A DNA stretch of 64,000 bases from Giardia intestinalis. Lineage: Eukaryota. Of this stretch, positions 1 to 47,800 are shown piece after piece. The notes below the pieces were generated by a model. The model did no database searches and was not told the DNA's origin. It was given only the letters and a program-made list of their open reading frames with translations. Where the stretch lies: assembly GCA_000002435.2 (NCBI GenBank), contig CM018791.1; one strand, 5' to 3'. Numbering within the stretch: the stretch's first letter is position 1; every line of letters begins with the position of its first letter. A program made the position numbers and the translations under genes.

Positions 1-2145
1 AGGCGCGCCCCTGTGCGGAGAGTTTGAAGCCAACGCAGTGGGTTTGGAGCCCACCTGCTGGCTCGACCGATGCCCGGCCTGCCTGGCCAGCAGGACGCTC
101 TCCAGACCGGGCCTTGCCCTCCCATGCTTTAAACCCTGAAGGCTTTACTCGCAGACAGCTAGGCGCCGTCTCGCTTTTCTGACGGCCTTTTACATAGCTA
201 ATAGAGTTGATGCGTGGAACGGTCTTGCGCTAGCGGAGAGCTTGTACTGCTCTTGACAGCGTGCAGAAGAGCCTCTCTGCTATTTTGTTAAGACGTACTT
301 GCAATAAAGCACCTCCTACTTCTCTCTATTTTAGACCGCACTACTCTTTCTGAGGTTGGGACACAGCCCGCCACGCTCTTTGATGCAAGCCCACTGCAAT
401 GTCAACCCTACTCCACGTATCCTGAACACCTGATCGAGTCTGTCCTATACTGTGCGTACCAGGCTTCCAAGGCACTAGGCACATAACCACCACTCACCTT
501 AAGGCTAATTCCATAAAGTGTGGCAGAGCTTTTGCCCATGCCTTCGTCGCAAGACAAGCAGACAGCCGTTCGGCTCTACTCTTAAGCTCTGATCTGATGC
601 ACACAAGGGGCCATACACTCTGTGCTGCACATCTTGTTGCTACCGGGAGGCAAACTGTTTGCATTAGTCCCTTGCGTAAAAGGTGAAGAGAGGGAACATC
701 ACTTCTGCAGAGCAACTTTACAATCCATGGCTGCGTTTCTATAATCGACATTCTATCGAAAGAATTGCTGTGAGCATGCTCATGAAGCCATAGAAGGTTG
801 TTGGAATAGGACTTCTAGCGATAATACTCATGATGTCCCTGTGAACATTCCTATCTGCTGCACTGTCATTGCCATGGTATATTTGCGGATAGATAAGCAA
901 TTGTGGCAGCCCTAATTTGTTGTTGAGCTACCTCAGTCGCAACTCAAACGTAAAGCAATAGCACGCATCAGCATCTTGCTCGGCGATACCGATCGAAGAT
1001 TGTGCACACAGCCCTTATCTAGTCATTATGCTTAGCTTCTCGATCTTATGAGCTTTCTAATGCACTCTGATTTCTTCTGCCAACTGTCTCGACTTCATCA
1101 TCTGATCTTCTTTGGCTTTATTCATAGAGTTGTCTATTTGTGATGGATATTCATGCAGGATATATCAGCGTACTGCTGCACTCAACAAGAATGCAGGGGT
1201 GTCACTTTTAAAGCAGCCAGCCTCAAGGAGTTTAATGGCAGTCTCTGTTGAAGACATCCAGTATGTGTGCACTACTGGGAGTGATGTATCTCATCACTAA
1301 GGACTTTAGAAGTCATCTACACATTAATGAATAAGCCCCGAAAGAGCGTAGCCTGTAGCTATCTGCAGCCAAATATAGGGCATGTTGATCGCATACACAC
1401 ATCCTTCTCAGCATATCTCACACACAGCCCTTACTTGCATCCAGCCTGATCTTGTCAGTAGGCTGTGCTCTCCTTAACTATAATGAGGCAGCTATACAAA
1501 CTATCTCGATAGCGCCTCATAGAAACTATGCTTTGACGGTATATTCCTCTCTGCGAGTAGGATGTTCTGGATTGTCTGGACTGATGAGGATCGTATTAAG
1601 GTGCAAAGAAGTACAACGATGTGGCTGATTATGTAGAGAAGGTCGAGAGCGATTAGGTGGGTAGCCACTAGGAGAAGCCGGCGACAAGCGAGGCACCCTT
1701 ATATGAGCCGGAGCATTGCAGATTCAGATGTCCATTGTCTGTTCAGATATTGGTGCGCGACTCGCATGGAGCAGACAACATGCCCGCGATGGAGTAGTAG
1801 GAGACGCGTTTACAGCTAAGCGTGAGTCTACGCCTTTTCCAGCAGAGGAAGCCAATAACGTCAGTAGGAGGGGCAGAAAAGATATGACCACAGGCATACT
1901 ATGAGCTCCTCGTACTATGTGTAATGTTTGAGTCTAACTTTGTATTAACTAGCCTTACTCTTATTTAAATCAAGAGATAAATCTATGATATTGGTCGCTT
2001 CCCAGTAGCAATACGCCCCCGATTCTAAGCTTCTTTAATTAACTAAGTTACAGAAAGACGCTGCCAATTTAAGCTCTTCTCATTCATGGACCAATCTATA
2101 CATCTGAGTGAAGAAAGTACCAATTAATTACAGATCCTAACTCCA

Positions 2146-5100
2146 ATGTTACTAGTACTTCTCGCAAGTTGTATAGCTGTACAAGCCGCGGTGTGTGCGC
2201 CCGCGCTGATCGGCGCCGGGTGTGCGACATGCACAGGAGAGAACGACGGACAGACGTGCCTTACGTGTAATCCCCAAGAGAACAAGGTGCAGCCTGGCGG
2301 AAAGAAATGCGGAGTCGGCTGCCCGGCGAACTCCACCCCTAAGGAGAGCGTGTGCGAGTGCAACGGAGGATACAGGCCGAACGCCCAGGGCCAGTGCGAG
2401 CAAGACCCCGCCGCGGTGTGTGCGCCCGCGCTGATCGGCGCCGGGTGTGCGACATGCACAGGAGAGAACGACGGACAGACGTGCCTTACGTGTAATCCCC
2501 AAGAGAACAAGGTGCAGCCTGGCGGAAAGAAATGCGGAGTCGGCTGCCCGGCGAACTCCACCCCTAAGGAGAGCGTGTGCGAGTGCAACGGAGGATACAG
2601 GCCGAACGCCCAGGGCCAGTGCGAGCAAGACCCCGCCGCGGTGTGTGCGCCCGCGCTGATCGGCGCCGGGTGTGCGACATGCACAGGAGAGAACGACGGA
2701 CAGACGTGCCTTACGTGTAATCCCCAAGAGAACAAGGTGCAGCCTGGCGGAAAGAAATGCGGAGTCGGCTGCCCGGCGAACTCCACCCCTAAGGAGAGCG
2801 TGTGCGAGTGCAACGGAGGATACAGGCCGAACGCCCAGGGCCAGTGCGAGCAAGACCCCGCCGCGGTGTGTGCGCCCGCGCTGATCGGCGCCGGGTGTGC
2901 GACATGCACAGGAGAGAACGACGGACAGACGTGCCTTACGTGTAATCCCCAAGAGAACAAGGTGCAGCCTGGCGGAAAGAAATGCGGAGTCGGCTGCCCG
3001 GCGAACTCCACCCCTAAGGAGAGCGTGTGCGAGTGCAACGGAGGATACAGGCCGAACGCCCAGGGCCAGTGCGAGCAAGACCCCGCCGCGGTGTGTGCGC
3101 CCGCGCTGATCGGCGCCGGGTGTGCGACATGCACAGGAGAGAACGACGGACAGACGTGCCTTACGTGTAATCCCCAAGAGAACAAGGTGCAGCCTGGCGG
3201 AAAGAAATGCGGAGTCGGCTGCCCGGCGAACTCCACCCCTAAGGAGAGCGTGTGCGAGTGCAACGGAGGATACAGGCCGAACGCCCAGGGCCAGTGCGAG
3301 CAAGACCCCGCCGCGGTGTGTGCGCCCGCGCTGATCGGCGCCGGGTGTGCGACATGCACAGGAGAGAACGACGGACAGACGTGCCTTACGTGTAATCCCC
3401 AAGAGAACAAGGTGCAGCCTGGCGGAAAGAAATGCGGAGTCGGCTGCCCGGCGAACTCCACCCCTAAGGAGAGCGTGTGCGAGTGCAACGGAGGATACAG
3501 GCCGAACGCCCAGGGCCAGTGCGAGCAAGACCCCGCCGCGGTGTGTGCGCCCGCGCTGATCGGCGCCGGGTGTGCGACATGCACAGGAGAGAACGACGGA
3601 CAGACGTGCCTTACGTGTAATCCCCAAGAGAACAAGGTGCAGCCTGGCGGAAAGAAATGCGGAGTCGGCTGCCCGGCGAACTCCACCCCTAAGGAGAGCG
3701 TGTGCGAGTGCAACGGAGGATACAGGCCGAACGCCCAGGGCCAGTGCGAGCAAGACCCCGCCGCGGTGTGTGCGCCCGCGCTGATCGGCGCCGGGTGTGC
3801 GACATGCACAGGAGAGAACGACGGACAGACGTGCCTTACGTGTAATCCCCAAGAGAACAAGGTGCAGCCTGGCGGAAAGAAATGCGGAGTCGGCTGCCCG
3901 GCGAACTCCACCCCTAAGGAGAGCGTGTGCGAGTGCAACGGAGGATACAGGCCGAACGCCCAGGGCCAGTGCGAGCAAGACCCCGCCGCGGTGTGTGCGC
4001 CCGCGCTGATCGGCGCCGGGTGTGCGACATGCACAGGAGAGAACGACGGACAGACGTGCCTTACGTGTAATCCCCAAGAGAACAAGGTGCAGCCTGGCGG
4101 AAAGAAATGCGGAGTCGGCTGCCCGGCGAACTCCACCCCTAAGGAGAGCGTGTGCGAGTGCAACGGAGGATACAGGCCGAACGCCCAGGGCCAGTGCGAG
4201 CAAGACCCCGCCGCGGTGTGTGCGCCCGCGCTGATCGGCGCCGGGTGTGCGACATGCACAGGAGAGAACGACGGACAGACGTGCCTTACGTGTAATCCCC
4301 AAGAGAACAAGGTGCAGCCTGGCGGAAAGAAATGCGGAGTCGGCTGCCCGGCGAACTCCACCCCTAAGGAGAGCGTGTGCGAGTGCAACGGAGGATACAG
4401 GCCGAACGCCCAGGGCCAGTGCGAGCAAGACCCCGCCGCGGTGTGTGCGCCCGCGCTGATCGGCGCCGGGTGTGCGACATGCACAGGAGAGAACGACGGA
4501 CAGACGTGCCTTACGTGTAATCCCCAAGAGAACAAGGTGCAGCCTGGCGGAAAGAAATGCGGAGTCGGCTGCCCGGCGAACTCCACCCCTAAGGAGAGCG
4601 TGTGCGAGTGCAACGGAGGATACAGGCCGAACGCCCAGGGCCAGTGCGAGCAAGACCCCGCCGCGGTGTGTGCGCCCGCGCTGATCGGCGCCGGGTGTGC
4701 GACATGCACAGGAGAGAACGACGGACAGACGTGCCTTACGTGTAATCCCCAAGAGAACAAGGTGCAGCCTGGCGGAAAGAAATGCGGAGTCGGCTGCCCG
4801 GCGAACTCCACCCCTAAGGAGAGCGTGTGCGAGTGCAACGGAGGATACAGGCCGAACGCCCAGGGCCAGTGCGAGCAAGACCCCGCCGCGGTGTGTGCGC
4901 CCGCGCTGATCGGCGCCGGGTGTGCGACATGCACAGGAGAGAACGACGGACAGACGTGCCTTACGTGTAATCCCCAAGAGAACAAGGTGCAGCCTGGCGG
5001 AAAGAAATGCGGAGTCGGCTGCCCGGCGAACTCCACCCCTAAGGAGAGCGTGTGCGAGTGCAACGGAGGATACAGGCCGAACGCCCAGGGCCAGTGCGAG

Positions 5101-8100
5101 CAAGACCCCGCCGCGGTGTGTGCGCCCGCGCTGATCGGCGCCGGGTGTGCGACATGCACAGGAGAGAACGACGGACAGACGTGCCTTACGTGTAATCCCC
5201 AAGAGAACAAGGTGCAGCCTGGCGGAAAGAAATGCGGAGTCGGCTGCCCGGCGAACTCCACCCCTAAGGAGAGCGTGTGCGAGTGCAACGGAGGATACAG
5301 GCCGAACGCCCAGGGCCAGTGCGAGCAAGACCCCGCCGCGGTGTGTGCGCCCGCGCTGATCGGCGCCGGGTGTGCGACATGCACAGGAGAGAACGACGGA
5401 CAGACGTGCCTTACGTGTAATCCCCAAGAGAACAAGGTGCAGCCTGGCGGAAAGAAATGCGGAGTCGGCTGCCCGGCGAACTCCACCCCTAAGGAGAGCG
5501 TGTGCGAGTGCAACGGAGGATACAGGCCGAACGCCCAGGGCCAGTGCGAGCAAGACCCCGCCGCGGTGTGTGCGCCCGCGCTGATCGGCGCCGGGTGTGC
5601 GACATGCACAGGAGAGAACGACGGACAGACGTGCCTTACGTGTAATCCCCAAGAGAACAAGGTGCAGCCTGGCGGAAAGAAATGCGGAGTCGGCTGCCCG
5701 GCGAACTCCACCCCTAAGGAGAGCGTGTGCGAGTGCAACGGAGGATACAGGCCGAACGCCCAGGGCCAGTGCGAGCAAGACCCCGCCGCGGTGTGTGCGC
5801 CCGCGCTGATCGGCGCCGGGTGTGCGACATGCACAGGAGAGAACGACGGACAGACGTGCCTTACGTGTAATCCCCAAGAGAACAAGGTGCAGCCTGGCGG
5901 AAAGAAATGCGGAGTCGGCTGCCCGGCGAACTCCACCCCTAAGGAGAGCGTGTGCGAGTGCAACGGAGGATACAGGCCGAACGCCCAGGGCCAGTGCGAG
6001 CAAGACCCCGCCGCGGTGTGTGCGCCCGCGCTGATCGGCGCCGGGTGTGCGACATGCACAGGAGAGAACGACGGACAGACGTGCCTTACGTGTAATCCCC
6101 AAGAGAACAAGGTGCAGCCTGGCGGAAAGAAATGCGGAGTCGGCTGCCCGGCGAACTCCACCCCTAAGGAGAGCGTGTGCGAGTGCAACGGAGGATACAG
6201 GCCGAACGCCCAGGGCCAGTGCGAGCAAGACCCCGCCGCGGTGTGTGCGCCCGCGCTGATCGGCGCCGGGTGTGCGACATGCACAGGAGAGAACGACGGA
6301 CAGACGTGCCTTACGTGTAATCCCCAAGAGAACAAGGTGCAGCCTGGCGGAAAGAAATGCGGAGTCGGCTGCCCGGCGAACTCCACCCCTAAGGAGAGCG
6401 TGTGCGAGTGCAACGGAGGATACAGGCCGAACGCCCAGGGCCAGTGCGAGCAAGACCCCGCCGCGGTGTGTGCGCCCGCGCTGATCGGCGCCGGGTGTGC
6501 GACATGCACAGGAGAGAACGACGGACAGACGTGCCTTACGTGTAATCCCCAAGAGAACAAGGTGCAGCCTGGCGGAAAGAAATGCGGAGTCGGCTGCCCG
6601 GCGAACTCCACCCCTAAGGAGAGCGTGTGCGAGTGCAACGGAGGATACAGGCCGAACGCCCAGGGCCAGTGCGAGCAAGACCCCGCCGCGGTGTGTGCGC
6701 CCGCGCTGATCGGCGCCGGGTGTGCGACATGCACAGGAGAGAACGACGGACAGACGTGCCTTACGTGTAATCCCCAAGAGAACAAGGTGCAGCCTGGCGG
6801 AAAGAAATGCGGAGTCGGCTGCCCGGCGAACTCCACCCCTAAGGAGAGCGTGTGCGAGTGCAACGGAGGATACAGGCCGAACGCCCAGGGCCAGTGCGAG
6901 CAAGACCCCGCCGCGGTGTGTGCGCCCGCGCTGATCGGCGCCGGGTGTGCGACATGCACAGGAGAGAACGACGGACAGACGTGCCTTACGTGTAATCCCC
7001 AAGAGAACAAGGTGCAGCCTGGCGGAAAGAAATGCGGAGTCGGCTGCCCGGCGAACTCCACCCCTAAGGAGAGCGTGTGCGAGTGCAACGGAGGATACAG
7101 GCCGAACGCCCAGGGCCAGTGCGAGCAAGACCCCGCCGCGGTGTGTGCGCCCGCGCTGATCGGCGCCGGGTGTGCGACATGCACAGGAGAGAACGACGGA
7201 CAGACGTGCCTTACGTGTAATCCCCAAGAGAACAAGGTGCAGCCTGGCGGAAAGAAATGCGGAGTCGGCTGCCCGGCGAACTCCACCCCTAAGGAGAGCG
7301 TGTGCGAGTGCAACGGAGGATACAGGCCGAACGCCCAGGGCCAGTGCGAGCAAGACCCCGCCGCGGTGTGTGCGCCCGCGCTGATCGGCGCCGGGTGTGC
7401 GACATGCACAGGAGAGAACGACGGACAGACGTGCCTTACGTGTAATCCCCAAGAGAACAAGGTGCAGCCTGGCGGAAAGAAATGCGGAGTCGGCTGCCCG
7501 GCGAACTCCACCCCTAAGGAGAGCGTGTGCGAGTGCAACGGAGGATACAGGCCGAACGCCCAGGGCCAGTGCGAGCAAGACCCCGCCGCGGTGTGTGCGC
7601 CCGCGCTGATCGGCGCCGGGTGTGCGACATGCACAGGAGAGAACGACGGACAGACGTGCCTTACGTGTAATCCCCAAGAGAACAAGGTGCAGCCTGGCGG
7701 AAAGAAATGCGGAGTCGGCTGCCCGGCGAACTCCACCCCTAAGGAGAGCGTGTGCGAGTGCAACGGAGGATACAGGCCGAACGCCCAGGGCCAGTGCGAG
7801 CAAGACCCCGCCGCGGTGTGTGCGCCCGCGCTGATCGGCGCCGGGTGTGCGACATGCACAGGAGAGAACGACGGACAGACGTGCCTTACGTGTAATCCCC
7901 AAGAGAACAAGGTGCAGCCTGGCGGAAAGAAATGCGGAGTCGGCTGCCCGGCGAACTCCACCCCTAAGGAGAGCGTGTGCGAGTGCAACGGAGGATACAG
8001 GCCGAACGCCCAGGGCCAGTGCGAGCAAGACCCCGCCGCGGTGTGTGCGCCCGCGCTGATCGGCGCCGGGTGTGCGACATGCACAGGAGAGAACGACGGA

Positions 8101-8607
8101 CAGACGTGCCTTACGTGTAATCCCCAAGAGAACAAGGTGCAGCCTGGCGGAAAGAAATGCGGAGTCGGCTGCCCGGCGAACTCCACCCCTAAGGAGAGCG
8201 TGTGCGAGTGCAACGGAGGATACAGGCCGAACGCCCAGGGCCAGTGCGAGCAAGACCCCGCCGCGGTGTGTGCGCCCGCGCTGATCGGCGCCGGGTGTGC
8301 GACATGCACAGGAGAGAACGACGGACAGACGTGCCTTACGTGTAATCCCCAAGAGAACAAGGTGCAGCCTGGCGGAAAGAAATGCGGAGTCGGCTGCCCG
8401 GCGAACTCCACCCCTAAGGAGAGCGTGTGCGAGTGCAACGGAGGATACAGGCCGAACGCCCAGGGCCAGTGCGAGCCTTCTAATACTAATAAGAGTAGCG
8501 GTCTTTCTACCGGCGCCATAGCAGGCATCGCTGTGGCTGCTGTCATCGTTGTAGGAGGGCTCGTCGGCTTCCTTTGCTGGTGGTTCATATGTAGGGGGAA
8601 AGCGTAG
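2146..8607 (+). CDS. Variant-specific surface protein (VSP), 2153 aa: signal peptide, 28 identical 75-aa Cys-rich tandem modules (two CXXC motifs and an NST sequon per module), TM helix, CRGKA tail
   Basis: ATG at 2146 preceded by AT-rich 'caattaattacag'. N-terminal hydrophobic MLLVLLASCIAVQA. C-terminus ...GIAVAAVIVVGGLVGFLCWWFICRGKA* is the invariant Giardia VSP tail. The VSP extended poly(A) signal follows the stop. 10 Cys per 75-aa unit. Confidence 0.93.
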   Translation: MLLVLLASCIAVQAAVCAPALIGAGCATCTGENDGQTCLTCNPQENKVQPGGKKCGVGCPANSTPKESVCECNGGYRPNAQGQCEQDPAAVCAPALIGAGCATCTGENDGQTCLTCNPQENKVQPGGKKCGVGCPANSTPKESVCECNGGYRPNAQGQCEQDPAAVCAPALIGAGCATCTGENDGQTCLTCNPQENKVQPGGKKCGVGCPANSTPKESVCECNGGYRPNAQGQCEQDPAAVCAPALIGAGCATCTGENDGQTCLTCNPQENKVQPGGKKCGVGCPANSTPKESVCECNGGYRPNAQGQCEQDPAAVCAPALIGAGCATCTGENDGQTCLTCNPQENKVQPGGKKCGVGCPANSTPKESVCECNGGYRPNAQGQCEQDPAAVCAPALIGAGCATCTGENDGQTCLTCNPQENKVQPGGKKCGVGCPANSTPKESVCECNGGYRPNAQGQCEQDPAAVCAPALIGAGCATCTGENDGQTCLTCNPQENKVQPGGKKCGVGCPANSTPKESVCECNGGYRPNAQGQCEQDPAAVCAPALIGAGCATCTGENDGQTCLTCNPQENKVQPGGKKCGVGCPANSTPKESVCECNGGYRPNAQGQCEQDPAAVCAPALIGAGCATCTGENDGQTCLTCNPQENKVQPGGKKCGVGCPANSTPKESVCECNGGYRPNAQGQCEQDPAAVCAPALIGAGCATCTGENDGQTCLTCNPQENKVQPGGKKCGVGCPANSTPKESVCECNGGYRPNAQGQCEQDPAAVCAPALIGAGCATCTGENDGQTCLTCNPQENKVQPGGKKCGVGCPANSTPKESVCECNGGYRPNAQGQCEQDPAAVCAPALIGAGCATCTGENDGQTCLTCNPQENKVQPGGKKCGVGCPANSTPKESVCECNGGYRPNAQGQCEQDPAAVCAPALIGAGCATCTGENDGQTCLTCNPQENKVQPGGKKCGVGCPANSTPKESVCECNGGYRPNAQGQCEQDPAAVCAPALIGAGCATCTGENDGQTCLTCNPQENKVQPGGKKCGVGCPANSTPKESVCECNGGYRPNAQGQCEQDPAAVCAPALIGAGCATCTGENDGQTCLTCNPQENKVQPGGKKCGVGCPANSTPKESVCECNGGYRPNAQGQCEQDPAAVCAPALIGAGCATCTGENDGQTCLTCNPQENKVQPGGKKCGVGCPANSTPKESVCECNGGYRPNAQGQCEQDPAAVCAPALIGAGCATCTGENDGQTCLTCNPQENKVQPGGKKCGVGCPANSTPKESVCECNGGYRPNAQGQCEQDPAAVCAPALIGAGCATCTGENDGQTCLTCNPQENKVQPGGKKCGVGCPANSTPKESVCECNGGYRPNAQGQCEQDPAAVCAPALIGAGCATCTGENDGQTCLTCNPQENKVQPGGKKCGVGCPANSTPKESVCECNGGYRPNAQGQCEQDPAAVCAPALIGAGCATCTGENDGQTCLTCNPQENKVQPGGKKCGVGCPANSTPKESVCECNGGYRPNAQGQCEQDPAAVCAPALIGAGCATCTGENDGQTCLTCNPQENKVQPGGKKCGVGCPANSTPKESVCECNGGYRPNAQGQCEQDPAAVCAPALIGAGCATCTGENDGQTCLTCNPQENKVQPGGKKCGVGCPANSTPKESVCECNGGYRPNAQGQCEQDPAAVCAPALIGAGCATCTGENDGQTCLTCNPQENKVQPGGKKCGVGCPANSTPKESVCECNGGYRPNAQGQCEQDPAAVCAPALIGAGCATCTGENDGQTCLTCNPQENKVQPGGKKCGVGCPANSTPKESVCECNGGYRPNAQGQCEQDPAAVCAPALIGAGCATCTGENDGQTCLTCNPQENKVQPGGKKCGVGCPANSTPKESVCECNGGYRPNAQGQCEQDPAAVCAPALIGAGCATCTGENDGQTCLTCNPQENKVQPGGKKCGVGCPANSTPKESVCECNGGYRPNAQGQCEQDPAAVCAPALIGAGCATCTGENDGQTCLTCNPQENKVQPGGKKCGVGCPANSTPKESVCECNGGYRPNAQGQCEQDPAAVCAPALIGAGCATCTGENDGQTCLTCNPQENKVQPGGKKCGVGCPANSTPKESVCECNGGYRPNAQGQCEPSNTNKSSGLSTGAIAGIAVAAVIVVGGLVGFLCWWFICRGKA
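2176..8475 (+). repeat. Tandem array of ~28 x 225-bp units, all copies apparently identical at nucleotide level, in frame within the VSP gene
   Basis: Period-225 recurrence of identical embedded ORFs at 2222, 2447, ... 8297 (28 copies). The sequence lines repeat verbatim. The last unit diverges at 8476 (cagtgcgagccttctaat vs cagtgcgagcaagacccc). Confidence 0.95.
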
Positions 8608-8611
8608 ATGT

Positions 8612-8626
8612 ACTTAGGTAGTAAAC
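8612..8626 (+). terminator. VSP-type extended polyadenylation signal ACTTAGGTAGTAAAC (consensus ACTYAGRTAGTRAAY), 5 nt after TAG stop
   Basis: Exact match to the published VSP-specific 3' motif containing the general Giardia AGTRAAY signal. Confidence 0.85.
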
Positions 8627-9033
8627 GCGTCACTGTATATGGCTCATATAAATGTGCTGCTGGGCTCACTTGAGGACCTGGTCCAGAGATCGTGCGGGTA
8701 ATCATCGCTCCTTCCTGGCCAGTTCAGAGACGAGGGTTGGCTGTGGATGATATAATAGGGATCTCCCTTCACTTGTATACCAGGAGTCTTTTGCGTCCCT
8801 CAGTTGTTCCGCAGAGGTGTGCTCAGTCTGAGTATGCACGTCGGTCCTTTAGGGGTTCAGGCCTTCTTGCAGACTCTCTGCTCTACCGGTGGCGCCTCTC
8901 CTTAGTCTTTCTTCGTGGTGGGTGAAGCTCCGGTCACCATCCTTTTTTAGATGCCCCGTCTGCCAGGGGCTGCCATCGGGCTCTCCGCTGGCTGGGCCCC
9001 TCGGTGTCCGGGCAGCTGTGGTTCTGGGTCAGT

Positions 9034-10974
9034 GCTCTACAGTCGCGGTCACTAGGTCCCAGTGGGTTCGGATGGTGGGTGAGGAGGGGTTGCTGAGGCG
9101 GTGAGGCTGGTGGGACCGGGGGGTGTTCGCATGTGCCTCTGGGGTCAGTGGGTCAGTGAGGTGGTGGCTGTGGTGACTGGGGGCTATCCATCTATGATTC
9201 ACCCCTCTGTGGACTCGTGGTCTGTGAGTGCCTCCACCCAGACAGCACCCCAGGAGCCGGAGAGTGGTGCCAGCCTAGCTGCCCTCCCTCCTCGGTGCCT
9301 CCCAGTGCAGACTCACCGGAGGCCACTACCCTGTCAGCCACCCAAAGGAGCCGTGCACACCGGGACAGAGAGGATGACCAAGGGGGTCAAGCAGCCCTGC
9401 CACGAGGGTGCACAGCAACCAGCATGAGATGTAGGGTCTGCTCGAGCGATGTAGTGGCAGACGACTCCCTCTGACAGCGACCCTGGTGACTGCACTGGTC
9501 TGCTCTCGAGGCTGAGTGACAGTGTGCACAGATGGACATGAGTGCAGGAGGACCGTCCACACACGGACAGACTGTGTGGACCCAGAGAGGACTGGAGTCT
9601 GCTCGGGACACGCTGACTGTGTGCCCATACGAGAGTGCCAGGCAACTACTCAAGCACCGAGAGGCAGGTACAGACACGGGCACTAGAGATCCCCAGCCAG
9701 ACACATTGCTATGCTCATCCACAGGGGCATCAGAGGGCCAGGTGGAGTCACCCTCACAGTTAGGGCCTGATAGGAAGCCAGAGGACTCAAACACTACAGC
9801 AGGCCCAAGGGAGGCACACTCCAGGCAGGTGAGCAGTGGCAGAGCCTTGATAGCTGCCATCCACCCCCATGACACCCAGGCAGGCACCAGACTCCGAAGA
9901 CTCGCTGGCCTCGACTGATGACCCGAGGGGGCAGCAGCCAGAGGAGTGAGGAGGCCTTCGGACACCACAAGAGGCCGGCTGTCCAGCAGGCTATGAGGCA
10001 GACAGGTGGCCTCTGAGCACCATAAGGCACAGGAGCCGACCATCATGAGTGATGCCCGATCACAGAGATGACCACGAGCGCCCTCCACCGCACTCTGGGG
10101 GGCTGTCGATCATCCCACTGCCTCTCATAGCAGACCTCCTTGGGGGCAGTGCAGTGGGTCCCAGCTCATACAGGAGGGTGTGTGCCCCCCTCAGTATAGG
10201 ATGCCCCGACTCTTCCCGAGGGGTCATCAGAGCCACGAGGAGGGGTCAAGGTCCTGGTGGATCACACCGGGAACCCCTCGAATGGGCACAGCAGGTGATG
10301 TTGGGTGACCCTCAGCGTGCTCCTCTCTGCATGGTAGAGCATCCTGAGACCAAGGAAGCTCACCCCTGCCTACGGATGACACACAGCGCTCCACAACGAG
10401 GACCCACCAGGAGCAGCACAGCTGACCACGGGGGCAGTGCAGCCACCCGGTACCCCACCATGCCAGTCTTCTGGGCCATCACACTAGAGGCCTGAGAGAA
10501 CCCCATCCCATCCACAGGGTCATCCACACCCCTGCTGGCCCGAGGTGAACTGCACCCATCGAGGCACTGGACAGGGCATGCTGGGGGCCCAGCAGATCCA
10601 CACAGAGCATCAGCACAGAGCATCAGCGAGTAGCAGGAGAGGCTGCGATGGCCTGCCTCAGCCCTCACGTACCAGCCAGCCAGAGGCAGTACTACCCGAG
10701 ACATGCAGGGGCCAAGGGAGGCGCTCAGTCAGGGGACATGACACAATCGTCGGTGCCTGTGTCTCGGGGAGTGCAACGCAGGCTGGGGATCAGACGCAAC
10801 CACCTTGGCAAACAGAGAGGGGATCACCCACCACCCCACTGGCCCACCAGACCCAGGGGCACATACAAGCACCCCCACCCGGTCCCCCGGTCCCACCAGC
10901 CTCACCGCCTCAGCAACCCCTCCTCACCCACCAGCCGGCCCGCTATGGAACCTACGTGACCGTGACCGTGGGAG
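9034..10974. other. GC-rich, strand-skewed central spacer of the palindrome (G-rich on + strand at left edge, C-rich on + strand at right edge); no credible CDS
   Basis: Only overlapping multi-frame ORFs with Pro/Arg/Gly/His-rich translations typical of GC-rich non-coding DNA. Composition mirrors itself across the centre (degenerate IR). Confidence 0.6.
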
Positions 10975-11382
10975 CGCTGACCCAGAACCACAGCTGCCCG
11001 GACACCGAGGGGCCCAGCCAGTGGAGAGCCCGATGGCAGCCCCTGGCAGACGGGGCATCTAAAAAAGGATGGTGACCGGAGCTTCACCCACCACGAAGAA
11101 AGACTAAGGAGAGGCGCCACCGGTAGAGCAGAGAGTCTGCAAGAAGGCCTGAACCCCTAAAGGACCGACGTGCATACTCAGACTGAGCACACCTCTGCGG
11201 AACAACTGAGGGACGCAAAAGACTCCTGGTATACAAGTGAAGGGAGATCCCTATTATATCATCCACAGCCAACCCTCGTCTCTGAACTGGCCAGGAAGGA
11301 GCGATGATTACCCGCACGATCTCTGGACCAGGTCCTCAAGTGAGCCCAGCAGCACATTTATATGAGCCATATACAGTGACGC

Positions 11383-11397
11383 GTTTACTACCTAAGT
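11383..11397 (-). terminator. Mirror copy of VSP extended polyadenylation signal for the short VSP paralog
   Basis: gtttactacctaagt on + strand is the reverse complement of ACTTAGGTAGTAAAC; it lies just 3' of the 11402..11788 CDS. Confidence 0.8.
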
Positions 11398-11401
11398 ACA
11401 T

Positions 11402-11788
11402 CTACGCTTTCCCCCTACATATGAACCACCAGCAAAGGAAGCCGACGAGCCCTCCTACAACGATGACAGCAGCCACAGCGATGCCTGCTATGGCGCCGGT
11501 AGAAAGACCGCTACTCTTATTAGTATTAGAAGGCTCGCACTGGCCCTGGGCGTTCGGCCTGTATCCTCCGTTGCACTCGCACACGCTCTCCTTAGGGGTG
11601 GAGTTCGCCGGGCAGCCGACTCCGCATTTCTTTCCGCCAGGCTGCACCTTGTTCTCTTGGGGATTACACGTAAGGCACGTCTGTCCGTCGTTCTCTCCTG
11701 TGCATGTCGCACACCCGGCGCCGATCAGCGCGGGCGCACACACCGCGGCTTGTACAGCTATACAACTTGCGAGAAGTACTAGTAACAT
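11402..11788 (-). CDS. Short VSP paralog (128 aa): same signal peptide, a single Cys-rich module, TM helix and CRGKA tail
   Basis: Protein MLLVLLASCIAVQA + one 75-aa module + ...PSNTNKSSGLSTGAIAGIAVAAVIVVGGLVGFLCWWFICRGKA*. Its N-terminus and the C-terminal 44 aa match the long copy exactly. Same promoter-proximal sequence and poly(A) signal. Confidence 0.75.
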   Translation of the reverse strand: MLLVLLASCIAVQAAVCAPALIGAGCATCTGENDGQTCLTCNPQENKVQPGGKKCGVGCPANSTPKESVCECNGGYRPNAQGQCEPSNTNKSSGLSTGAIAGIAVAAVIVVGGLVGFLCWWFICRGKA

Positions 11789-14190
11789 TGGAGTTAGGAT
11801 CTGTAATTAATTGGTACTTTCTTCACTCAGATGTATAGATTGGTCCATGAATGAGAAGAGCTTAAATTGGCAGCGTCTTTCTGTAACTTAGTTAATTAAA
11901 GAAGCTTAGAATCGGGGGCGTATTGCTACTGGGAAGCGACCAATATCATAGATTTATCTCTTGATTTAAATAAGAGTAAGGCTAGTTAATACAAAGTTAG
12001 ACTCAAACATTACACATAGTACGAGGAGCTCATAGTATGCCTGTGGTCATATCTTTTCTGCCCCTCCTACTGACGTTATTGGCTTCCTCTGCTGGAAAAG
12101 GCGTAGACTCACGCTTAGCTGTAAACGCGTCTCCTACTACTCCATCGCGGGCATGTTGTCTGCTCCATGCGAGTCGCGCACCAATATCTGAACAGACAAT
12201 GGACATCTGAATCTGCAATGCTCCGGCTCATATAAGGGTGCCTCGCTTGTCGCCGGCTTCTCCTAGTGGCTACCCACCTAATCGCTCTCGACCTTCTCTA
12301 CATAATCAGCCACATCGTTGTACTTCTTTGCACCTTAATACGATCCTCATCAGTCCAGACAATCCAGAACATCCTACTCGCAGAGAGGAATATACCGTCA
12401 AAGCATAGTTTCTATGAGGCGCTATCGAGATAGTTTGTATAGCTGCCTCATTATAGTTAAGGAGAGCACAGCCTACTGACAAGATCAGGCTGGATGCAAG
12501 TAAGGGCTGTGTGTGAGATATGCTGAGAAGGATGTGTGTATGCGATCAACATGCCCTATATTTGGCTGCAGATAGCTACAGGCTACGCTCTTTCGGGGCT
12601 TATTCATTAATGTGTAGATGACTTCTAAAGTCCTTAGTGATGAGATACATCACTCCCAGTAGTGCACACATACTGGATGTCTTCAACAGAGACTGCCATT
12701 AAACTCCTTGAGGCTGGCTGCTTTAAAAGTGACACCCCTGCATTCTTGTTGAGTGCAGCAGTACGCTGATATATCCTGCATGAATATCCATCACAAATAG
12801 ACAACTCTATGAATAAAGCCAAAGAAGATCAGATGATGAAGTCGAGACAGTTGGCAGAAGAAATCAGAGTGCATTAGAAAGCTCATAAGATCGAGAAGCT
12901 AAGCATAATGACTAGATAAGGGCTGTGTGCACAATCTTCGATCGGTATCGCCGAGCAAGATGCTGATGCGTGCTATTGCTTTACGTTTGAGTTGCGACTG
13001 AGGTAGCTCAACAACAAATTAGGGCTGCCACAATTGCTTATCTATCCGCAAATATACCATGGCAATGACAGTGCAGCAGATAGGAATGTTCACAGGGACA
13101 TCATGAGTATTATCGCTAGAAGTCCTATTCCAACAACCTTCTATGGCTTCATGAGCATGCTCACAGCAATTCTTTCGATAGAATGTCGATTATAGAAACG
13201 CAGCCATGGATTGTAAAGTTGCTCTGCAGAAGTGATGTTCCCTCTCTTCACCTTTTACGCAAGGGACTAATGCAAACAGTTTGCCTCCCGGTAGCAACAA
13301 GATGTGCAGCACAGAGTGTATGGCCCCTTGTGTGCATCAGATCAGAGCTTAAGAGTAGAGCCGAACGGCTGTCTGCTTGTCTTGCGACGAAGGCATGGGC
13401 AAAAGCTCTGCCACACTTTATGGAATTAGCCTTAAGGTGAGTGGTGGTTATGTGCCTAGTGCCTTGGAAGCCTGGTACGCACAGTATAGGACAGACTCGA
13501 TCAGGTGTTCAGGATACGTGGAGTAGGGTTGACATTGCAGTGGGCTTGCATCAAAGAGCGTGGCGGGCTGTGTCCCAACCTCAGAAAGAGTAGTGCGGTC
13601 TAAAATAGAGAGAAGTAGGAGGTGCTTTATTGCAAGTACGTCTTAACAAAATAGCAGAGAGGCTCTTCTGCACGCTGTCAAGAGCAGTACAAGCTCTCCG
13701 CTAGCGCAAGACCGTTCCACGCATCAACTCTATTAGCTATGTAAAAGGCCGTCAGAAAAGCGAGACGGCGCCTAGCTGTCTGCGAGTAAAGCCTTCAGGG
13801 TTTAAAGCATGGGAGGGCAAGGCCCGGTCTGGAGAGCGTCCTGCTGGCCAGGCAGGCCGGGCATCGGTCGAGCCAGCAGGTGGGCTCCAAACCCACTGCG
13901 TTGGCTTCAAACTCTCCGCACAGGGGCACGCCTGAGGGGCCCGCAAGCCCCTGGTGCAGAGGACGGGGCCTGCTGGTGTTGTGGTCACGACAGTGGCTCT
14001 GGTGTACTCCAGGAGCGGCCACCGCAGGGCTGGTCGGGCCGTGTGAGCAGGGTTCTGCGGAGCCCGAGTAGAGTCTGTTCTGTGTGTATGGCCACTCAGA
14101 GGCAGTGGCCTAACGATATTCATCGACCTACTAACTAGTAAACCCGATAAAGAGCCGGTTGGAATACGCAAATACGTGCATAAGAGCAAA

Positions 14191-15228
14191 ATGTTGTGTT
14201 CAGACCAAAATTTGCATGGTCGAGACCTCGCTTCAGTAACATCCCCTCTGAGACTCGTGGGTGAGGGTGGGAGGCGCCTTGTTTTTCGCAGGAACAAGGA
14301 GCTGATCTTAATCTCCAAGGTCTCTGCAGCCTCCGACGAAAGCTTCGAACAGACCATAGGCGGCCTCTTTCCGCTCTTTCCTTGGAAGCCGAGTCGCATA
14401 ACTGAAAGTTTATCTCAAGAACTTAACGCATTTCCTCTGCAAGTCCGTGCAAAAAGATATGCTGGAACGGCATTTCCCAGACCAAGCCCTGGGGAGACAT
14501 GCCTGAGCTACACCGGAGTGCATGATCTGCTTACTGTGGTATGCATTAAGCCACACTTTCCCAGCAAAGGAGGTTGGATCGAAAGTTTTTCATTACAAAG
14601 GAAAACAGATGCCGGACAGCACTTCTGTGATTGCTTGGCTCGTGGTGCATTTTACAAAGCGTGTGCTAGCAAGGATAGACTTGTCCACTGGCTCAACACG
14701 GCGTATATCTGCGGTCTCAACCACGGTAGCAACCACCTAACCGTTTACGACTTTGCATCTGATGCTTCTGCGCTCTCCTCCAGTGAGACCGATAAACTAT
14801 TTGGCGCAGTAGCTTGTGCATTAACAGGAGGAAACAATAGTGTTTGCATTCAAATCTACAAGTTGATACATATGTTAGAGGCTCTTCAGCGCGTCTCTTC
14901 TTCAACGCACTTACAAAATGTGGTATCGGCAAAAGAATATGCACACTTTTCCAGCAATTATAGAACTCTAAGCCATAGAGCTATCGAGATTGCTATACAG
15001 CTCTACGCCGGTGGAAAGCTTCCACCTTATGACAATCTCCCATACGTGGACAAGCTCGTCTGCATCCTTCTTTTTAAAACTCTTTCCGATGCATCGCTGC
15101 TCTTCTACCTCTCTAAATCTGACGAGAAGGTTCAATGGTATCTAACGGACCTTGCATTGAAGTCTGCCGAAAGAGTTGGAAAATGGGCATTCGCATCAGC
15201 AGCAAACGATAAGCACAGGGAGCAGTAG
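14191..15228 (+). CDS. Hypothetical protein (~345 aa from first ATG; ORF-track start at 14176 is GTG)
   Basis: Long ORF with ordinary amino-acid composition; no recognisable motif. May lie inside the off-window extension of the inverted repeat. Confidence 0.4.
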   Translation: MLCSDQNLHGRDLASVTSPLRLVGEGGRRLVFRRNKELILISKVSAASDESFEQTIGGLFPLFPWKPSRITESLSQELNAFPLQVRAKRYAGTAFPRPSPGETCLSYTGVHDLLTVVCIKPHFPSKGGWIESFSLQRKTDAGQHFCDCLARGAFYKACASKDRLVHWLNTAYICGLNHGSNHLTVYDFASDASALSSSETDKLFGAVACALTGGNNSVCIQIYKLIHMLEALQRVSSSTHLQNVVSAKEYAHFSSNYRTLSHRAIEIAIQLYAGGKLPPYDNLPYVDKLVCILLFKTLSDASLLFYLSKSDEKVQWYLTDLALKSAERVGKWAFASAANDKHREQ

Positions 15229-41890: not shown

Positions 41891-44800
41891 ATGCCCCCGA
41901 TCGTCGTTCCACTAGCGATGACATCCTCACAGGGGGACCAACAGGTGTTCTCCCTGAGGACACTACACCGTGTCGCAGAGCATGGCAGCTTTCTAACTTA
42001 TGATTTCAGTGATGACGCTGATTCTGTCATTGCAGGCTTGGAGGCTTCTTGTCCCGACTCTTTTGCCAATCAGACCATACCTACGCTCAGTTCTGACCAA
42101 TGTGACATGTTAAACGATTACTTAGACTTATGTAACACTATCCATGCACAAAGCTCTGTTTTCCACGAGGTTCATAGCGCCTCTGATGACCTCCAATCAA
42201 ACATTGATTATGCTATGTTTCTACTAACAAAGGGTACGGAGACAGCTCCAATCTTACGGACTATTCTACCGAAGCTCCAAGACACCGTGGGGAATTCTGC
42301 CGGCAACTGCTCTGATGTGGAGCCGGCAGAGATCAATGTAAGCTATGATCAGATGCCTCTGTCGGTTCGGAACTATCTTTTTTCACCCTATCTATTTGTC
42401 CACACATCTAAAGTTGCCTTCAAAGTGACTGATAAGAAAATGTCTACATGGTTTGTCACCACAGGCCCGCCCCAACTGGTGCAGGCCACGCTGACTAGTA
42501 TTGTCAGACCAGATGGAGTTACCATCACAAACACAGATGAGCAGTACTTGACATTATTCTCTTCACTCACCGACCTAGATACCGTTATTTACGCCAGCAT
42601 AGATAGCATGTATTCAGAACTTATAGTAGATCTTCCCATGTGTCCCGATTACTTCCTTGTCGCTTACCTACAGCCTATATTTATTCCACACGATAGCGTG
42701 ATAACCGGTGACTCATCTGGAGCTAGCATTACCCCCGTGAACCTTATGGAGACAGGAATCACCTTTCAGCTGAGAAACAACTGGGTTGATATAAATAATT
42801 TCTTAGCTCCTGGCCTCAGCACATGTGCTTTCCCGACAGTCTTGTCAGACGAGGACGCAGCGACACTTGAGTGGGTTGTTACCAAAATGAATCAGATCAA
42901 ATGGAGTTCGACCATATCACAGACACCTAAAACGAAGACTACCTCCGCAACCGTTACAGAAATTTATGAAGAGTATGTGTCTTTAATGAAAGCTGAAAGA
43001 AACGAGGCCTACGCTGCTGAGATGTCTAGACTAGTTATGTCCTACATAGATGGCGTTATAGACTTCAATCCCTTGTTATTTGGTCTCGTTTGCCTTTCCT
43101 TTATCAGCTCGAAACTCATCTATGTGCTTCTAAAGTACATCAATCTAGTTTTTGACCCCCCACTGGGCCTGCTCAGGAGTCTTGGACTTCCGGAGGCGTT
43201 CCCAGTCTTACACAATCTGACTTCAGTAACAGATTGTATCTATGGAATAGACTACGTTTATAGTAATATTATCGACGATAAGGAGCGGCTAGAACAGACT
43301 ACGCGGCCATTAAGTGTCTTAAAGAACAATCGCCCCGGCCACTCCCTTCAGTATAACAAGCATTACAGGACTTATTACAGTTCATTTTTTCTCCCCACAT
43401 ATCAAAACTTCACCAGGACCCAGTCGCTGAGTGTACCTCTATACAACATCTTTGCTCGAGACGTTGTCTCCACGAAGCAGCGCCGCTTTATCCCACTTAA
43501 TGAGCTTTCTCTTATGGAAGGGAAGGCGCCTCATGATATCATATATGTGGATGGAACTAGACCCATTAAGTTTATTAAGGATGGCAACGGAATCCAGCTT
43601 GTTGAGATTAGCATCCGAGACAGGACAGATACAAATATCCCCATTCGAGTGCCACATGACCTTTATCAGAACGTCGTCAATATGGTTGATCGTAGTGCGT
43701 CTACGGAGCAGTGCCGTGCCGAGCTCCAGCGCATAATAGAGGGCCAGTTCAAGCTATCGAAGCAGCTCAACGGGGAAAGAAATTACAACTCCACAAGAGC
43801 TATTACATACCAGAAACGCCAGAAGGCCGCGAAGCAGTCTGCTACAGATGAAGAGGGTCACTCTGACAATTCCCTCAACTCCACCACCTCGCCTACTTGC
43901 TTGACGGCGTCGCTGGACCATGGCAAGATTTCGTCTACTAAAAAAGTCACGCAAGATAGCAGCTTCATTCCTATACTTTGCGAGCCACGAGACACGGCTG
44001 TGCTGCTATCTGGGGCCACCGATATCAGCACAACTATGGTGGGGCCTATCTGCCATGCATGCTTCAATGCCCAGGCAGCGTCTTCTAACATATTGGGCGT
44101 TATTCAAACAATGATTGACGAGAGCATCTTTACCTATCAGGATGTATTGGGGGCAACACCTCCATCCCTGGTACACTTTGATGGCCGGAAGGACACTACC
44201 AACAATCCTGCCCAGACTGAAGTTATATGTGATGACTCCACTGATCCCACTTCTCTGGTCACCAAAACCACTGACGATAAGCTTGAGCTTGTGGTGGACG
44301 ATCAGAAGCTGTATTCATATCGTGATATCGCGATCGTTCGAGCCTCCTGCAACCCGTCAGTCACCGTTACAGACTTGGATTCTTATCGAGACATCTGCAT
44401 TCAGTTTAGCCTCATGATCGAGCGCTCTCGCCTCTGTGTTTACTTTCCTAGCTTTACGTACCATGACTATATAAGCCTCGGACTATACAACAACAAACTT
44501 CACTATCTTCATACCAATTCAGGATTTCACTTAGGATTTCTCCGGTTTCTTTTTGACTCTGCATTTACAACAGAGATAGATAGGTTTTCAGGCAATTCTT
44601 TGGGCACCTCAACCACTCAATCCTCCTCGCACGCCTTTTGTGTAACCGATGATCTTATAAGATTGGTTCAAGCAAGTGACTGTGAGAACTACGCACCTGT
44701 ACTCATTGATTTATTCAATAAGTTTGTCCTTCTAAATACTTATTTTATTTCTCGAAACATATCGTTTATTAATCCAGTCTTCAGTATATTGGATGCTACT

Positions 44801-47800
44801 TGCAGCAGTCAACTTGCGACAGAATCTTCTAACAACGAGCACCAGGACCCCAGCGAGTGTCCTGATCCATTTGCCTCTGATTTTATTGACCCAGCGTCAT
44901 TTATTACTCTGTCTGTTGGAGATACCAGCAGCTCATCTCACCCTATTAACTCTGCTAATTCCTTAGTCCAGCTCTTTAGCCCATTCCAACACCATGGAGA
45001 CTATACCAATCAGTCGGCTCTAGTTTATGCCATACTTACTCTTAGATTTCTGACCACCTTTATGGGAGGGTCTCTCGCTCTTCAAGAAGCTATTCGCCTC
45101 TACACCATCGCGGCCAGCTACTGCATGATTAGCTCCATACCTCCTCTCAAATGCTCAGTCAACCTAGCAGAAGTCAACTCAGATTCAAATGCACTGCTGG
45201 ATGAGACCATGACCTTGTGTGGTTCCAAGTCGTCTATCCTTTTGATTAATGAGCATAATCGTCACCTCGGCTTTTCAGAATCAGCCCAGGCTCTAAGTCT
45301 TGTCGATCATTTTAATGAAGACATACTTCATGGAGGATACAAGGCGACCATAAACAATACATTTACTCCGCTTTCTCCATTTTTGCTCTCCAAGGAGTAC
45401 TGTCCATCAGTTGTTCAAGACTCATATATTCACACAAACCTACGCAGTCTTCAGTATATCAGATGGTTGAGCGGCTCAAACTCTTTCCGGCCGCACACAT
45501 TTGAAGAATCAGACTCTGCGGGATACGACTCTGCCGTGGCTTATATCAAGGACTCTGCAAACATCACTGACCAGGTATCTCAGGCCTTCCTGCTGGAGGG
45601 TTCCATGAGAAGAAAGATAGAATCGTGGCCACACTATGGGGTATCTTATCGAGTCTGTCCAAATTACGACGCAAGCGTCAATGGCACAGCGCTGCCCAGT
45701 GCTAAAATGGTTATTTGGAGTAAGGACGACATCCCCACTGATTACATGTCTTCAAAGCTATTGGCCGATAGCGTATTCAACAGGGGAAAGTACGTCACAA
45801 TTCCATATGGATCTGAGTCCTATGGTTCCGTCAATCCTCACGAACTCGGGGCCGCTGCTAACGAATCCAAACAGTCAGCAAAGGCCTCTAGTGCCGAGCA
45901 TGATAAGAAAAAGGACAGTAAGGCCAAAAATATGGACGCAGATCGAGAGCTTGATTCTCTAGCAGACACCCTTTCTCTTATTAAGCAGATACAATTAAAT
46001 CCAGCCTATCCATGCGACGCATCCGCTTTCACCGCACTTTACACATCTACAGATAGACCCGTTACAATCAAGTATCACTTTATGGCCACAACGGGCCAGG
46101 AAGCCTCCATGCATCATATCGAAGAAGAGCAGATATGCTTTGGCATGCTAAGGGTATACATCAACGCCTTGCTACGGATCCTCATAGAGTGGATTGCGAT
46201 TTATGCGCCTTCCCTTCTGTGCTATTACGATGTGAGTCTGTCCGCCACTGCAGCGTCGGCCCCTCCCGACAACACTCGTTTCTGCCCCTTCGGGTTCAAT
46301 CGGTTTGTAAGCTCTGCGCTTCTCGAAGATGAAGCCGAGTATGCCGCGGGGACTCTACTCAAAAAGGACCTTGTGTCAGAAAGTATTGCATCTAAAGATC
46401 GAGCCAACACTCCCACGATCTTATGCTCTCCTTTTTTGGCAAGCAGCCTCAAGGAAGATCTTTCTGCCGGAAAAGAATGCCCTTGGCAACAGGATAGTCA
46501 ACCTGCTATGTCTTTGGCGCAGTATTTCAGTGAAGCCGATCAAGCCGGCAGTGCAGACGATGTCCAGACGCGTATCGGCCGCAAATCTCTGTATTCAGAC
46601 CAATTTCTGTCTGACCATGCGAGCGTCTTAGCGTCCTATAGGAAGATAGAGAGCGCCATGGCCACAGATAAGATCTTATCGGCAACAGATATTGTGAATA
46701 GCACAGACAGGTCCCTCCGCTTCCTTGCATATCCATACATTGTGTTCCCAGTCAATAACACAACGCATTATTCACGCATTTACTCAAAGGACCGCTTCCA
46801 GGAGAGTGACTGGTCGCAACTTAGTCCACCGCCGCCACGCATACACACAACCCTTCAGTTCTTTATTTGTCAGGTGTACACTGGTTCTGATGTCCTTTTT
46901 AGCTTGTTTACAGAACCACTTATCACAGTCCCCCTACTGGCCAGAACAATGCAAAACTTGCTGAGCCGGGCCATGCTGGCTGAACAGCGGGCATCCTATG
47001 TTTGGCGAACAATTTGCCCAGATTCGCACTTTACAAACTGCGACCAGAGCTATATGTGCATGTCTTCATGGGACAAGAAAGTCTTAACCCCAAAAGCAAT
47101 TCTGCAGGACTTTAAACGGCGCAACAATGACCTTATTCAGGGGCTTGACCCGGAGCTTTGGCCCATCACACTAGACCCCTCCCATATGCACCTAGGGAGA
47201 CTAGTATATCCGAGCTATTACCGTGCTTCAAGCAATCTCGAGGACCAGGCAGCTCTTTTCAATCGCTGGGGATCAGGGATGATAAGCACATTGATATCGT
47301 CCGGTACGCGGAACCTGCAGAACGAGCCTCAATCCACTCTCCTAATTAACTTTATTCCGCGGATCAATCCCTATCGTATTTCTCACGAGTTCTTGCAAAA
47401 GAGCCAGCTAATTGTACCAGGGATTATATCCCCCAGTTATGCTACTGCAGAGTTAGTCCGTTTGTACCGAACATACTTCTTCAGTATGGACGAGGAGTTT
47501 GTAAGATTGGTCCTCTGCAGGTCCAGCATGCTTTTTTCCTGCATCACTACAGGCTTTACCACGAAAACAAATCAGTCCGTATACGATCTGTGCGGATCAA
47601 ATCCTGTCTCGGAAGACATCTACTACTTCGCGACTCTAGGCTATAAGCATCTGCAAAACGCGGTTAATACAAAACAGTACACATATCCAGCGCCAATTTC
47701 CCTGTTGGACATAGAGCAGGTCATCTCTGGAATAGAGCTAACGTACAGTTCCTACGTTAGCAATCAGAAGTACTCAGAGTATCATTACACTGATGAAGAG

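Follow-up and report, generated by a model that had tools for sequence, protein, structure and literature searches.

A convergent pair of VSP genes in near-identical inverted arms, with 28 modules in one copy and one in the other, on chromosome 3 of Giardia intestinalis WB

The window analyzed here is a stretch of 64,000 nucleotides of Giardia intestinalis WB chromosome 3 (NC_051858.1), whose own coordinates are used throughout. Its left end carries two VSP genes that face each other tail-to-tail within a large inverted repeat. The left gene, GL50803_0050290 (KAE8302825.1 / XP_037901808.1), occupies positions 2146..8607 of the plus strand and codes for a 2153-aa protein composed of a 13-aa signal region, 28 Cys-rich modules, a transmembrane domain and the terminal CRGKA sequence. 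The right gene, GL50803_00102178 (KAE8302826.1 / XP_001704930.1), lies at 11402..11788 of the minus strand and codes for a 128-aa protein with a single module. It is the gene vsp156 of Adam et al. 2010 (PMC2996952), assigned to clade III and to chromosome 3 and carrying neither a pair nor a repeat flag. The two genes (2146-8607 on the plus and 11788-11402 on the minus strand) are convergent with a stop-to-stop gap of 2794 bp. A Giardia intestinalis WB VSP encoded on a chromosome of 1,973,847 bp matches the 128-aa protein with 100% identity, and the sequence cluster of this protein has two members, of 128 aa and 2153 aa. Only the 128-aa gene is present in the 2007 assembly; the 2153-aa gene is found only in the PacBio assembly of 2020. 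The supplement of the Be-2 genome paper has no entry for either VSP gene.

Both open reading frames (ORFs) have the hallmarks of the family, a signal peptide, a Cys-rich ectodomain with CXXC motifs and a C-terminal transmembrane domain followed by CRGKA, and both are named VSP at NCBI. The 128-aa protein matches the Pfam family VSP (PF03302) at 67.6 bits for a cut-off of 31.4. The signal peptide, module, transmembrane domain and CRGKA tail are identical in the two proteins. Taking the initiator-type context (C/T)AATGTT as the mark of a VSP start, the sequence CCAATGTT is found at the start of both genes, at 2143-2150 for the left copy. The extended VSP poly(A) motif TACTTAGGTAGTAAACGCGT follows 4 nt past the stop in both genes, at 8611-8630 for the left one and at 11398-11379 of the minus strand for the right one. 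The initial annotation, which had attributed the same signal peptide, module, transmembrane/CRGKA tail and poly(A) signal to the two VSPs, is thus borne out by the ORFs and their flanks. A preprint (bioRxiv 10.1101/2022.03.07.483299), from which the gene names used here are taken, gives the extended poly(A) motif for the two genes in its supplement.

The difference in size between the two proteins is due to a tandem array in the left gene (2185..8476, plus strand), built of a Cys-rich module of 225 bp (75 aa). Tandem Repeats Finder (TRF) counts 28.0 copies of the 225-bp unit at 100% matches, and direct comparison of the units gives 27 full ones and a final unit of 217 nt with no differences among them. 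The left and right ORFs are identical apart from these 27 additional 225-bp units (2153 vs 128 aa). The left gene has the organization of a tandem-repeat VSP, in which near-identical modules follow each other in frame between a short unique 5' end and a conserved 3' end, and its 225-bp unit is repeat consensus 2 in Table S2 of the preprint (bioRxiv 10.1101/2022.03.07.483299). Two long ORFs run antisense to the array on the minus strand (2193 aa, 2124-8705; 2066 aa, 2152-8352). Both were rejected as genes: they reflect frames of the 225-bp unit that have no stop and recur in its 28 copies.

The two genes and their flanks form the arms of an inverted repeat that is real and far above chance level. 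Positions 1-2401 pair in inverted orientation with 13933-11533 with a single mismatch (position 6, C, opposite 13928, T), and positions 8260-9037 pair with 11749-10972 with two mismatches (8987/11022 and 9033/10976), which amounts to 3 differences in 2962 comparable bases. On the left side, the arm includes a non-coding 5' flank with a GC content of 0.47 (1..2145, plus strand), which mirrors 11789-13933 with position 6 as the sole mismatch, and a 3' flank (8608..9037, plus strand), which mirrors 11401-10972 and contains the mismatches at 8987 and 9033. Their counterparts on the minus strand are the right 5' flank (11789..13998, 2210 nt) and the right 3' flank (10972..11401). The left arm exceeds the right one by 6075 bp because the left gene has 28 module units and the right gene only one. 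The complete inverted structure covers ~14.06 kb, with a left arm of ~9.1 kb, a gap of 1934 nt between the near-perfect arms and a right arm of 3027 nt. The arm alignment and the two ORFs confirm the convergent VSP pair with near-identical inverted arms that had been proposed; the near-perfect identity claimed for these arms holds for the bases that can be compared, while the arms themselves are unequal, with 28 modules against one.

The inner edges of the arms have a different character. Near-identity reaches ~430 nt past the stop codons with two mismatches and then decays over ~130 nt. The near-perfect arms stop at 9037/10972, after which identity drops to 88%, 87% and 69% and reaches background by ~9170/10825; measured stepwise over 9008-9160, the profile is 100%, 98%, 88%, 87% and 69%. 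The decaying inner parts, at 9038..9170 in the left arm and 10825..10971 in the right arm, face each other as an older degenerate inverted repeat. This gradual decay indicates that the near-perfect tract overlies an inverted repeat of greater age. The same centre is found between its own inverted arms, with 77-100% identity, at a paralogous locus (L012) from a short-read metagenome assembly.

The centre of the spacer (9171..10824, 1.65 kb) has no second copy in the window; it is a member of a non-coding sequence family that also occurs 3' of other VSP genes. It is 84-91% identical among four loci that lie beside different VSPs, namely the window (9171-10824) and contigs L011 (479-1476), L012 (~990-2461) and L013 (~10900-12153), and the variable sites have no 3-base periodicity. 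Its similarity between paralogous loci equals that between WB and its ortholog in isolate DH. The spacer centre has no match in Rfam or Pfam, and no local RNA structure was seen in the spacer (best folding z-score -1.9, mean +0.27). The possibility that the spacer contains a VSP pseudogene was discarded, since a tblastn search with 122 VSPs gave only noise (E = 0.004-0.007). A 233-aa ORF of the spacer was also rejected as a gene: its homologues have ~60% identity at the protein level for ~90% at the DNA level, with no Pfam match and no 3-base periodicity. A search for this ORF in WB short-read contigs gave no 100% match.

The outer boundary of the right arm is at 13998/13999, inside the window. 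Homology between the kinase-side locus of DH and the WB right arm begins exactly at 13998, and two WB-type NEK kinase contigs, L017 and L018, match 13969-13998 perfectly over their first 30 nt and then diverge. L017 and L018 are the two short-read contigs inspected, and 21 further contigs were grouped with them. Their 30-nt (k-1) end inside the arm is the pattern that a graph with k=31 produces at a repeat boundary. The left arm reaches its junction with the NEK kinase flank about 65 nt to the left of position 1; of this stretch, 30 nt were observed attached to that flank and 35 nt are inferred. The left neighbor is the NEK kinase KAE8302824.1, whose accession directly precedes those of the two VSPs. 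The palindrome, described initially as running off the window, does pass position 1, by just ~65 nt; likewise, its outer boundary lies beyond the window for the left arm, as had been stated, and within the window for the right one. Two suggestions on the extent of the structure were rejected. That the window begins at the end of the chromosome or contig, as hinted by the mismatch at position 6 and the unbroken right-flank contigs, is excluded by the NEK kinase as left neighbor with contigs joining it to the arm. That the arm is tens of kb long, as hinted by right-flank contigs unbroken until 32-42 kb, is excluded by the kinase-flank junction.

On the right side, Logan short-read contigs (k=31) from ten read sets (L001-L010), 100% or 99.99% identical to 27057-11720, extend without a break from the dynein gene past 13933 as far as 11720. 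Many independent short-read assemblies thus show one and the same arm end connected to two distinct outer flanks, the NEK kinase side and the dynein side. A simple k=31 graph would be expected to break both sets of flank contigs at 13969-13999, and only the kinase side breaks there. In nine of the ten right-flank contigs the sequence stops precisely 30 nt past the module start, at 11720. This break indicates a second predecessor of the module start, i.e., a unit-to-unit junction present in those read sets. The tenth contig (L001, from run SRR10662869, corresponding to window 11788-11461) passes through signal peptide, one module and C-terminus unbroken, unlike the other nine; this run may contain little or none of the array. 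The presence of two outer flanks on one arm end, together with the consecutive accessions, provides indirect backing for a location of both copies on one chromosome.

Single-module orthologs are found in isolates DH (assemblage AII, 127 aa) and P15 (assemblage E, 128 aa), both beside the same NEK kinase and with a 347-aa protein and an aminotransferase as further neighbors. As judged from these sequences, one module is the ancestral state, and the kinase side the ancestral position because the single-module ortholog of DH and P15 sits there. Between WB and DH, the 5' flank is 96% identical, the centre 88%, the module 86% and the 3' flank 77%. The low identity of the 3' flank would fit its replacement by conversion. 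The module (window 11525-11749), with 86% identity in nucleotides, and the protein, with 84% in amino acids, are below the non-coding 5' flank at 96%; that coding sequence is less conserved than this flank suggests diversifying change or conversion in the ectodomain. The DH contig (L013) has the order kinase, arm, one-module VSP, 3' flank and centre, the latter oriented as in the WB right copy. The centre or the whole inter-arm segment thus appears flipped relative to the kinase between WB and DH, as recombination between arms would yield.

Some further features of these isolates can be added. No inverted repeat is present in the DH contig L013, where a reverse-transcriptase gene (RVT_1, 628 aa; 12570-14456, minus strand) stands at the place of the WB second arm. 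A metagenome contig of AII type (L014, 2889 nt), which has 99.97% identity to DH, begins 15 nt within this same outer boundary and extends to 310 nt beyond the stop of the VSP gene, an extent that might correspond to a collapsed repeat arm. In P15 (L015, 9265-9455), a segment located 130 nt past the VSP stop matches the 5' flank (window 1547-1739) in inverted orientation with 72% identity.

The locus thus has two copies of a small clade III VSP gene, whose flanks in each case measure 2.2 kb upstream and ~0.43 kb downstream; the 28-module copy adjoins the NEK kinase and the one-module copy adjoins the dynein-side flank. We favor the interpretation, to which we give a probability of about 0.78, that they form a real inverted tail-to-tail VSP pair, one more of about a dozen known, shaped by conversion between the arms over an older palindromic spacer and by growth of the array in one arm. 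The near-identity of the arms would have been kept, or recently re-created, by intrachromosomal gene conversion that would begin at the conserved VSP 3' end and at the old inverted repeat of the spacer, spread outward and stop abruptly at 13998. As an alternative to conversion, a re-duplication could have spread from the conserved 3' end over the pre-existing palindromic spacer. The array would have expanded in one arm alone, by unequal sister-chromatid exchange or by replication slippage; because its units are identical, its growth would be very recent or the units continually homogenized. Recombination between the arms could also invert the intervening segment. The role of the arms as a substrate for inversion or gene conversion, put forward in the initial annotation, is plausible in view of the zone of decaying identity and of the DH centre, whose orientation relative to the kinase is opposite. 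Several observations weigh against this interpretation. Conversion is deduced from identity patterns, which would be similar if an older palindromic spacer had received a very recent duplication. The count of 28 copies and the placement of the long array in the left arm come from one PacBio assembly. The orientation in DH derives from a 454-era assembly and would be ambiguous if DH too had long identical arms. Finally, the right-flank contigs cross 13998 unbroken, whereas the kinase-flank contigs stop there.

An unlikely alternative is that the pair arose by one inverted duplication of very recent date, without ongoing conversion, that the copies have had no time to diverge and that the array expanded later. 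The 3 differences in 2962 nt and the abrupt outer boundary are what such an event would leave, and Adam et al. 2010 (PMC2996952) preferred recent duplication or transposition for identical pairs. However, the inner edge passes through ~130 nt of 69-88% identity with no immediate fall to background, and the degenerate inverted repeat around the same centre at the paralogous locus L012 points to an older palindrome that pre-existed. The AII contig L014, with its extent like that of a collapsed arm, is weak evidence that the duplication predates the split between AI and AII.

For the control of VSP genes, an RNA interference (RNAi)-type model has been put forward, attributed to Prucca et al. in 2008. 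The initial annotation saw the pair as a ready source of long double-stranded RNA (dsRNA). On this reading the pair could exist for that purpose, a read-through transcript from either gene, with the VSP in both sense and antisense, folding into a hairpin of at least 0.8 kb that would feed Dicer and RNAi silencing of VSPs. The sequence would allow it: the arms are near-perfectly complementary over the 387-nt coding sequence and ~430 nt of 3' flank, and all 28 modules match the partner. Transcripts of tail-to-tail Giardia genes overlap in 81% of such pairs (PMC3610916), and VSP antisense RNA is abundant (bioRxiv 10.1101/2022.03.07.483299). We nevertheless consider this purpose quite improbable. 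A canonical extended poly(A) signal lies 4 nt past both stops and 2.8 kb of read-through would be required, while the spacer has no structured-RNA signal. Antisense transcripts are reported for most VSPs, paired and unpaired genes not being separated (bioRxiv 10.1101/2022.03.07.483299), and the VSP1267 tail-to-tail pair can give the most abundant transcript of a clone, so that this layout does not impose silencing. The dsRNA idea is unsupported and not specific to pairs, overlap of transcripts being frequent among Giardia tail-to-tail genes at large, and the locus would not seem to be a dedicated dsRNA device. Convergent or hairpin loci of endogenous small interfering RNAs (endo-siRNAs) in other eukaryotes share with this locus a geometry that permits a long intramolecular RNA duplex given read-through. 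Unlike them, it has a strong poly(A) signal 3' of either gene, and expression is high for a similar pair in Giardia.

The chromosome 3 pair is of a known inverted-pair type and not a new arrangement. Knowledge of inverted VSP pairs goes back to vsp1267 (Mowatt et al. 1991). Adam et al. 2010 (PMC2996952) described 10 identical tail-to-tail pairs with inter-ORF distances of 2393-3222 bp and 3' divergence 318-559 nt past the stop; Table 2 of Xu et al. 2020 (PMC7000408) contains 12 tail-to-tail pairs with gaps of 2526-2813 bp; and 13 were reported in bioRxiv 10.1101/2022.03.07.483299, where the intergenic regions are nearly identical between different pairs. As in these pairs, the genes are convergent, the 2794-bp gap is within the published 2.4-3.2 kb and contains no intervening gene, and the 3' flanks are near-identical to ~430 nt past the stop, for a published range of 318-559 nt. 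The spacer centre is similarly akin to sequence found 3' of other VSP genes, and the pair is internal to the chromosome and adjoins unrelated genes. The difference lies in the ORFs, which are not identical here (2153 vs 128 aa), and the pair is missing from the published lists because these require identical ORFs. It also contradicts the remark in the preprint (bioRxiv 10.1101/2022.03.07.483299) that "no duplicated VSPs have repeats". The 5' divergence point could be determined here, 2210 nt above the ATG, which Adam et al. 2010 were unable to do for tail-to-tail pairs.

Variable module number has precedents in vspA6/CRP170, with ~23 repeats of 195 bp, its paralog vspA6-S1, with ~1 repeat, and vspC5, with ~25 repeats of 105 bp (Adam 2010, PMC2996952). 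The left gene resembles vspA6 and vspC5 in that near-identical Cys-rich modules fill it from a short unique 5' end up to a conserved 3' end; repeat number is known to vary in such genes, and the near-identical sister gene with about one module recalls vspA6-S1. In contrast to those genes, a single palindrome here has the many-copy form in one arm and the single-copy form in the other, the flanks being identical, and the repeated unit is of 225 bp. An analogy, and only that, can be drawn with large inverted repeats of the flip type, such as those of chloroplasts and of the yeast 2-micron plasmid, which also have kb-scale near-identical arms and to which the hint of a flipped centre between DH and WB can be likened. 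They differ from this locus, where no site-specific recombinase is implied and flip isomers within WB are hypothetical.

A second adjacent pair of a small and a giant VSP gene of the same clade is found on chromosome 5. KAE8304928.1 has 205 aa and 2 modules, and KAE8304929.1 has 2293 aa and 31 identical 72-aa modules; their N- and C-termini are identical. WB thus has at least two candidate pairs for a small/giant design. Such inverted pairs (1 vs 28 modules on chromosome 3, 2 vs 31 on chromosome 5) could represent a recurrent functional design in which recombination or conversion between arms toggles antigen size or flips the locus, or in which a read-through hairpin with 28-fold complementarity seeds silencing of the clade, a proposal that we regard as very doubtful. 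Catalogues restricted to identical ORFs overlook pairs that differ just in repeat number, as is the case for the chromosome 3 pair and probably for the chromosome 5 pair.

It is highly improbable that the inverted pair is an assembly artefact in which the left arm is a foldback or chimeric long read, or in which the 28- and 1-module genes are alleles, on different homologues of this tetraploid organism, mislaid as an inverted pair, in spite of the presence of the 2153-aa gene in the 2020 PacBio assembly only, of the repeat-number variation between alleles documented for vspA6 and vspC5, of contig L001 with its uninterrupted passage through one module and of the lack of a break of the right-flank contigs at 13998: a foldback due to a missing adapter would give a spacer-less perfect palindrome, whereas these arms flank a unique 1.65-kb centre whose family is seen near other VSPs in independent assemblies, the same arm end has two different outer flanks across many short-read sets, the gap and the 3' divergence point agree with those of a dozen pairs validated elsewhere, the cloned vsp1267 pair among them, and the contigs ending at the module start in nine of ten cases imply a unit-to-unit junction.

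Under the favored interpretation of a real pair homogenized by conversion, the locus would offer antigen forms of two sizes, ~13 kDa and ~220 kDa, behind identical promoters and would be prone to changes in copy number or orientation. Reads from both genes map to multiple positions, which makes expression of the 128-aa and 2153-aa forms inseparable by standard RNA-seq. The pair leaves the view of VSP expression control unchanged. To our knowledge Giardia has no sexual cycle, and the coexistence at a single locus of arm homogenization over an older palindrome and of array expansion in one arm makes it a natural setting in which to measure gene conversion, inversion and the instability of repeats.

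The rest of the window (19360-64000) is ordinary gene-dense Giardia sequence. The gene on the dynein side codes for a dynein heavy chain of 7449 aa (19360-41709, minus strand) and is followed by an ORF of 2730 aa (41891-50083, plus strand). The GC-rich right end of the window was considered for a further VSP, a possibility rejected since it has no ORF with CRGKA. It codes instead for a DEAD-box helicase (58557-60242), a Peptidase_C1 protein (60246-62156, minus strand) and an EGF/tenascin-like Cys-rich protein (62210-63988, minus strand).

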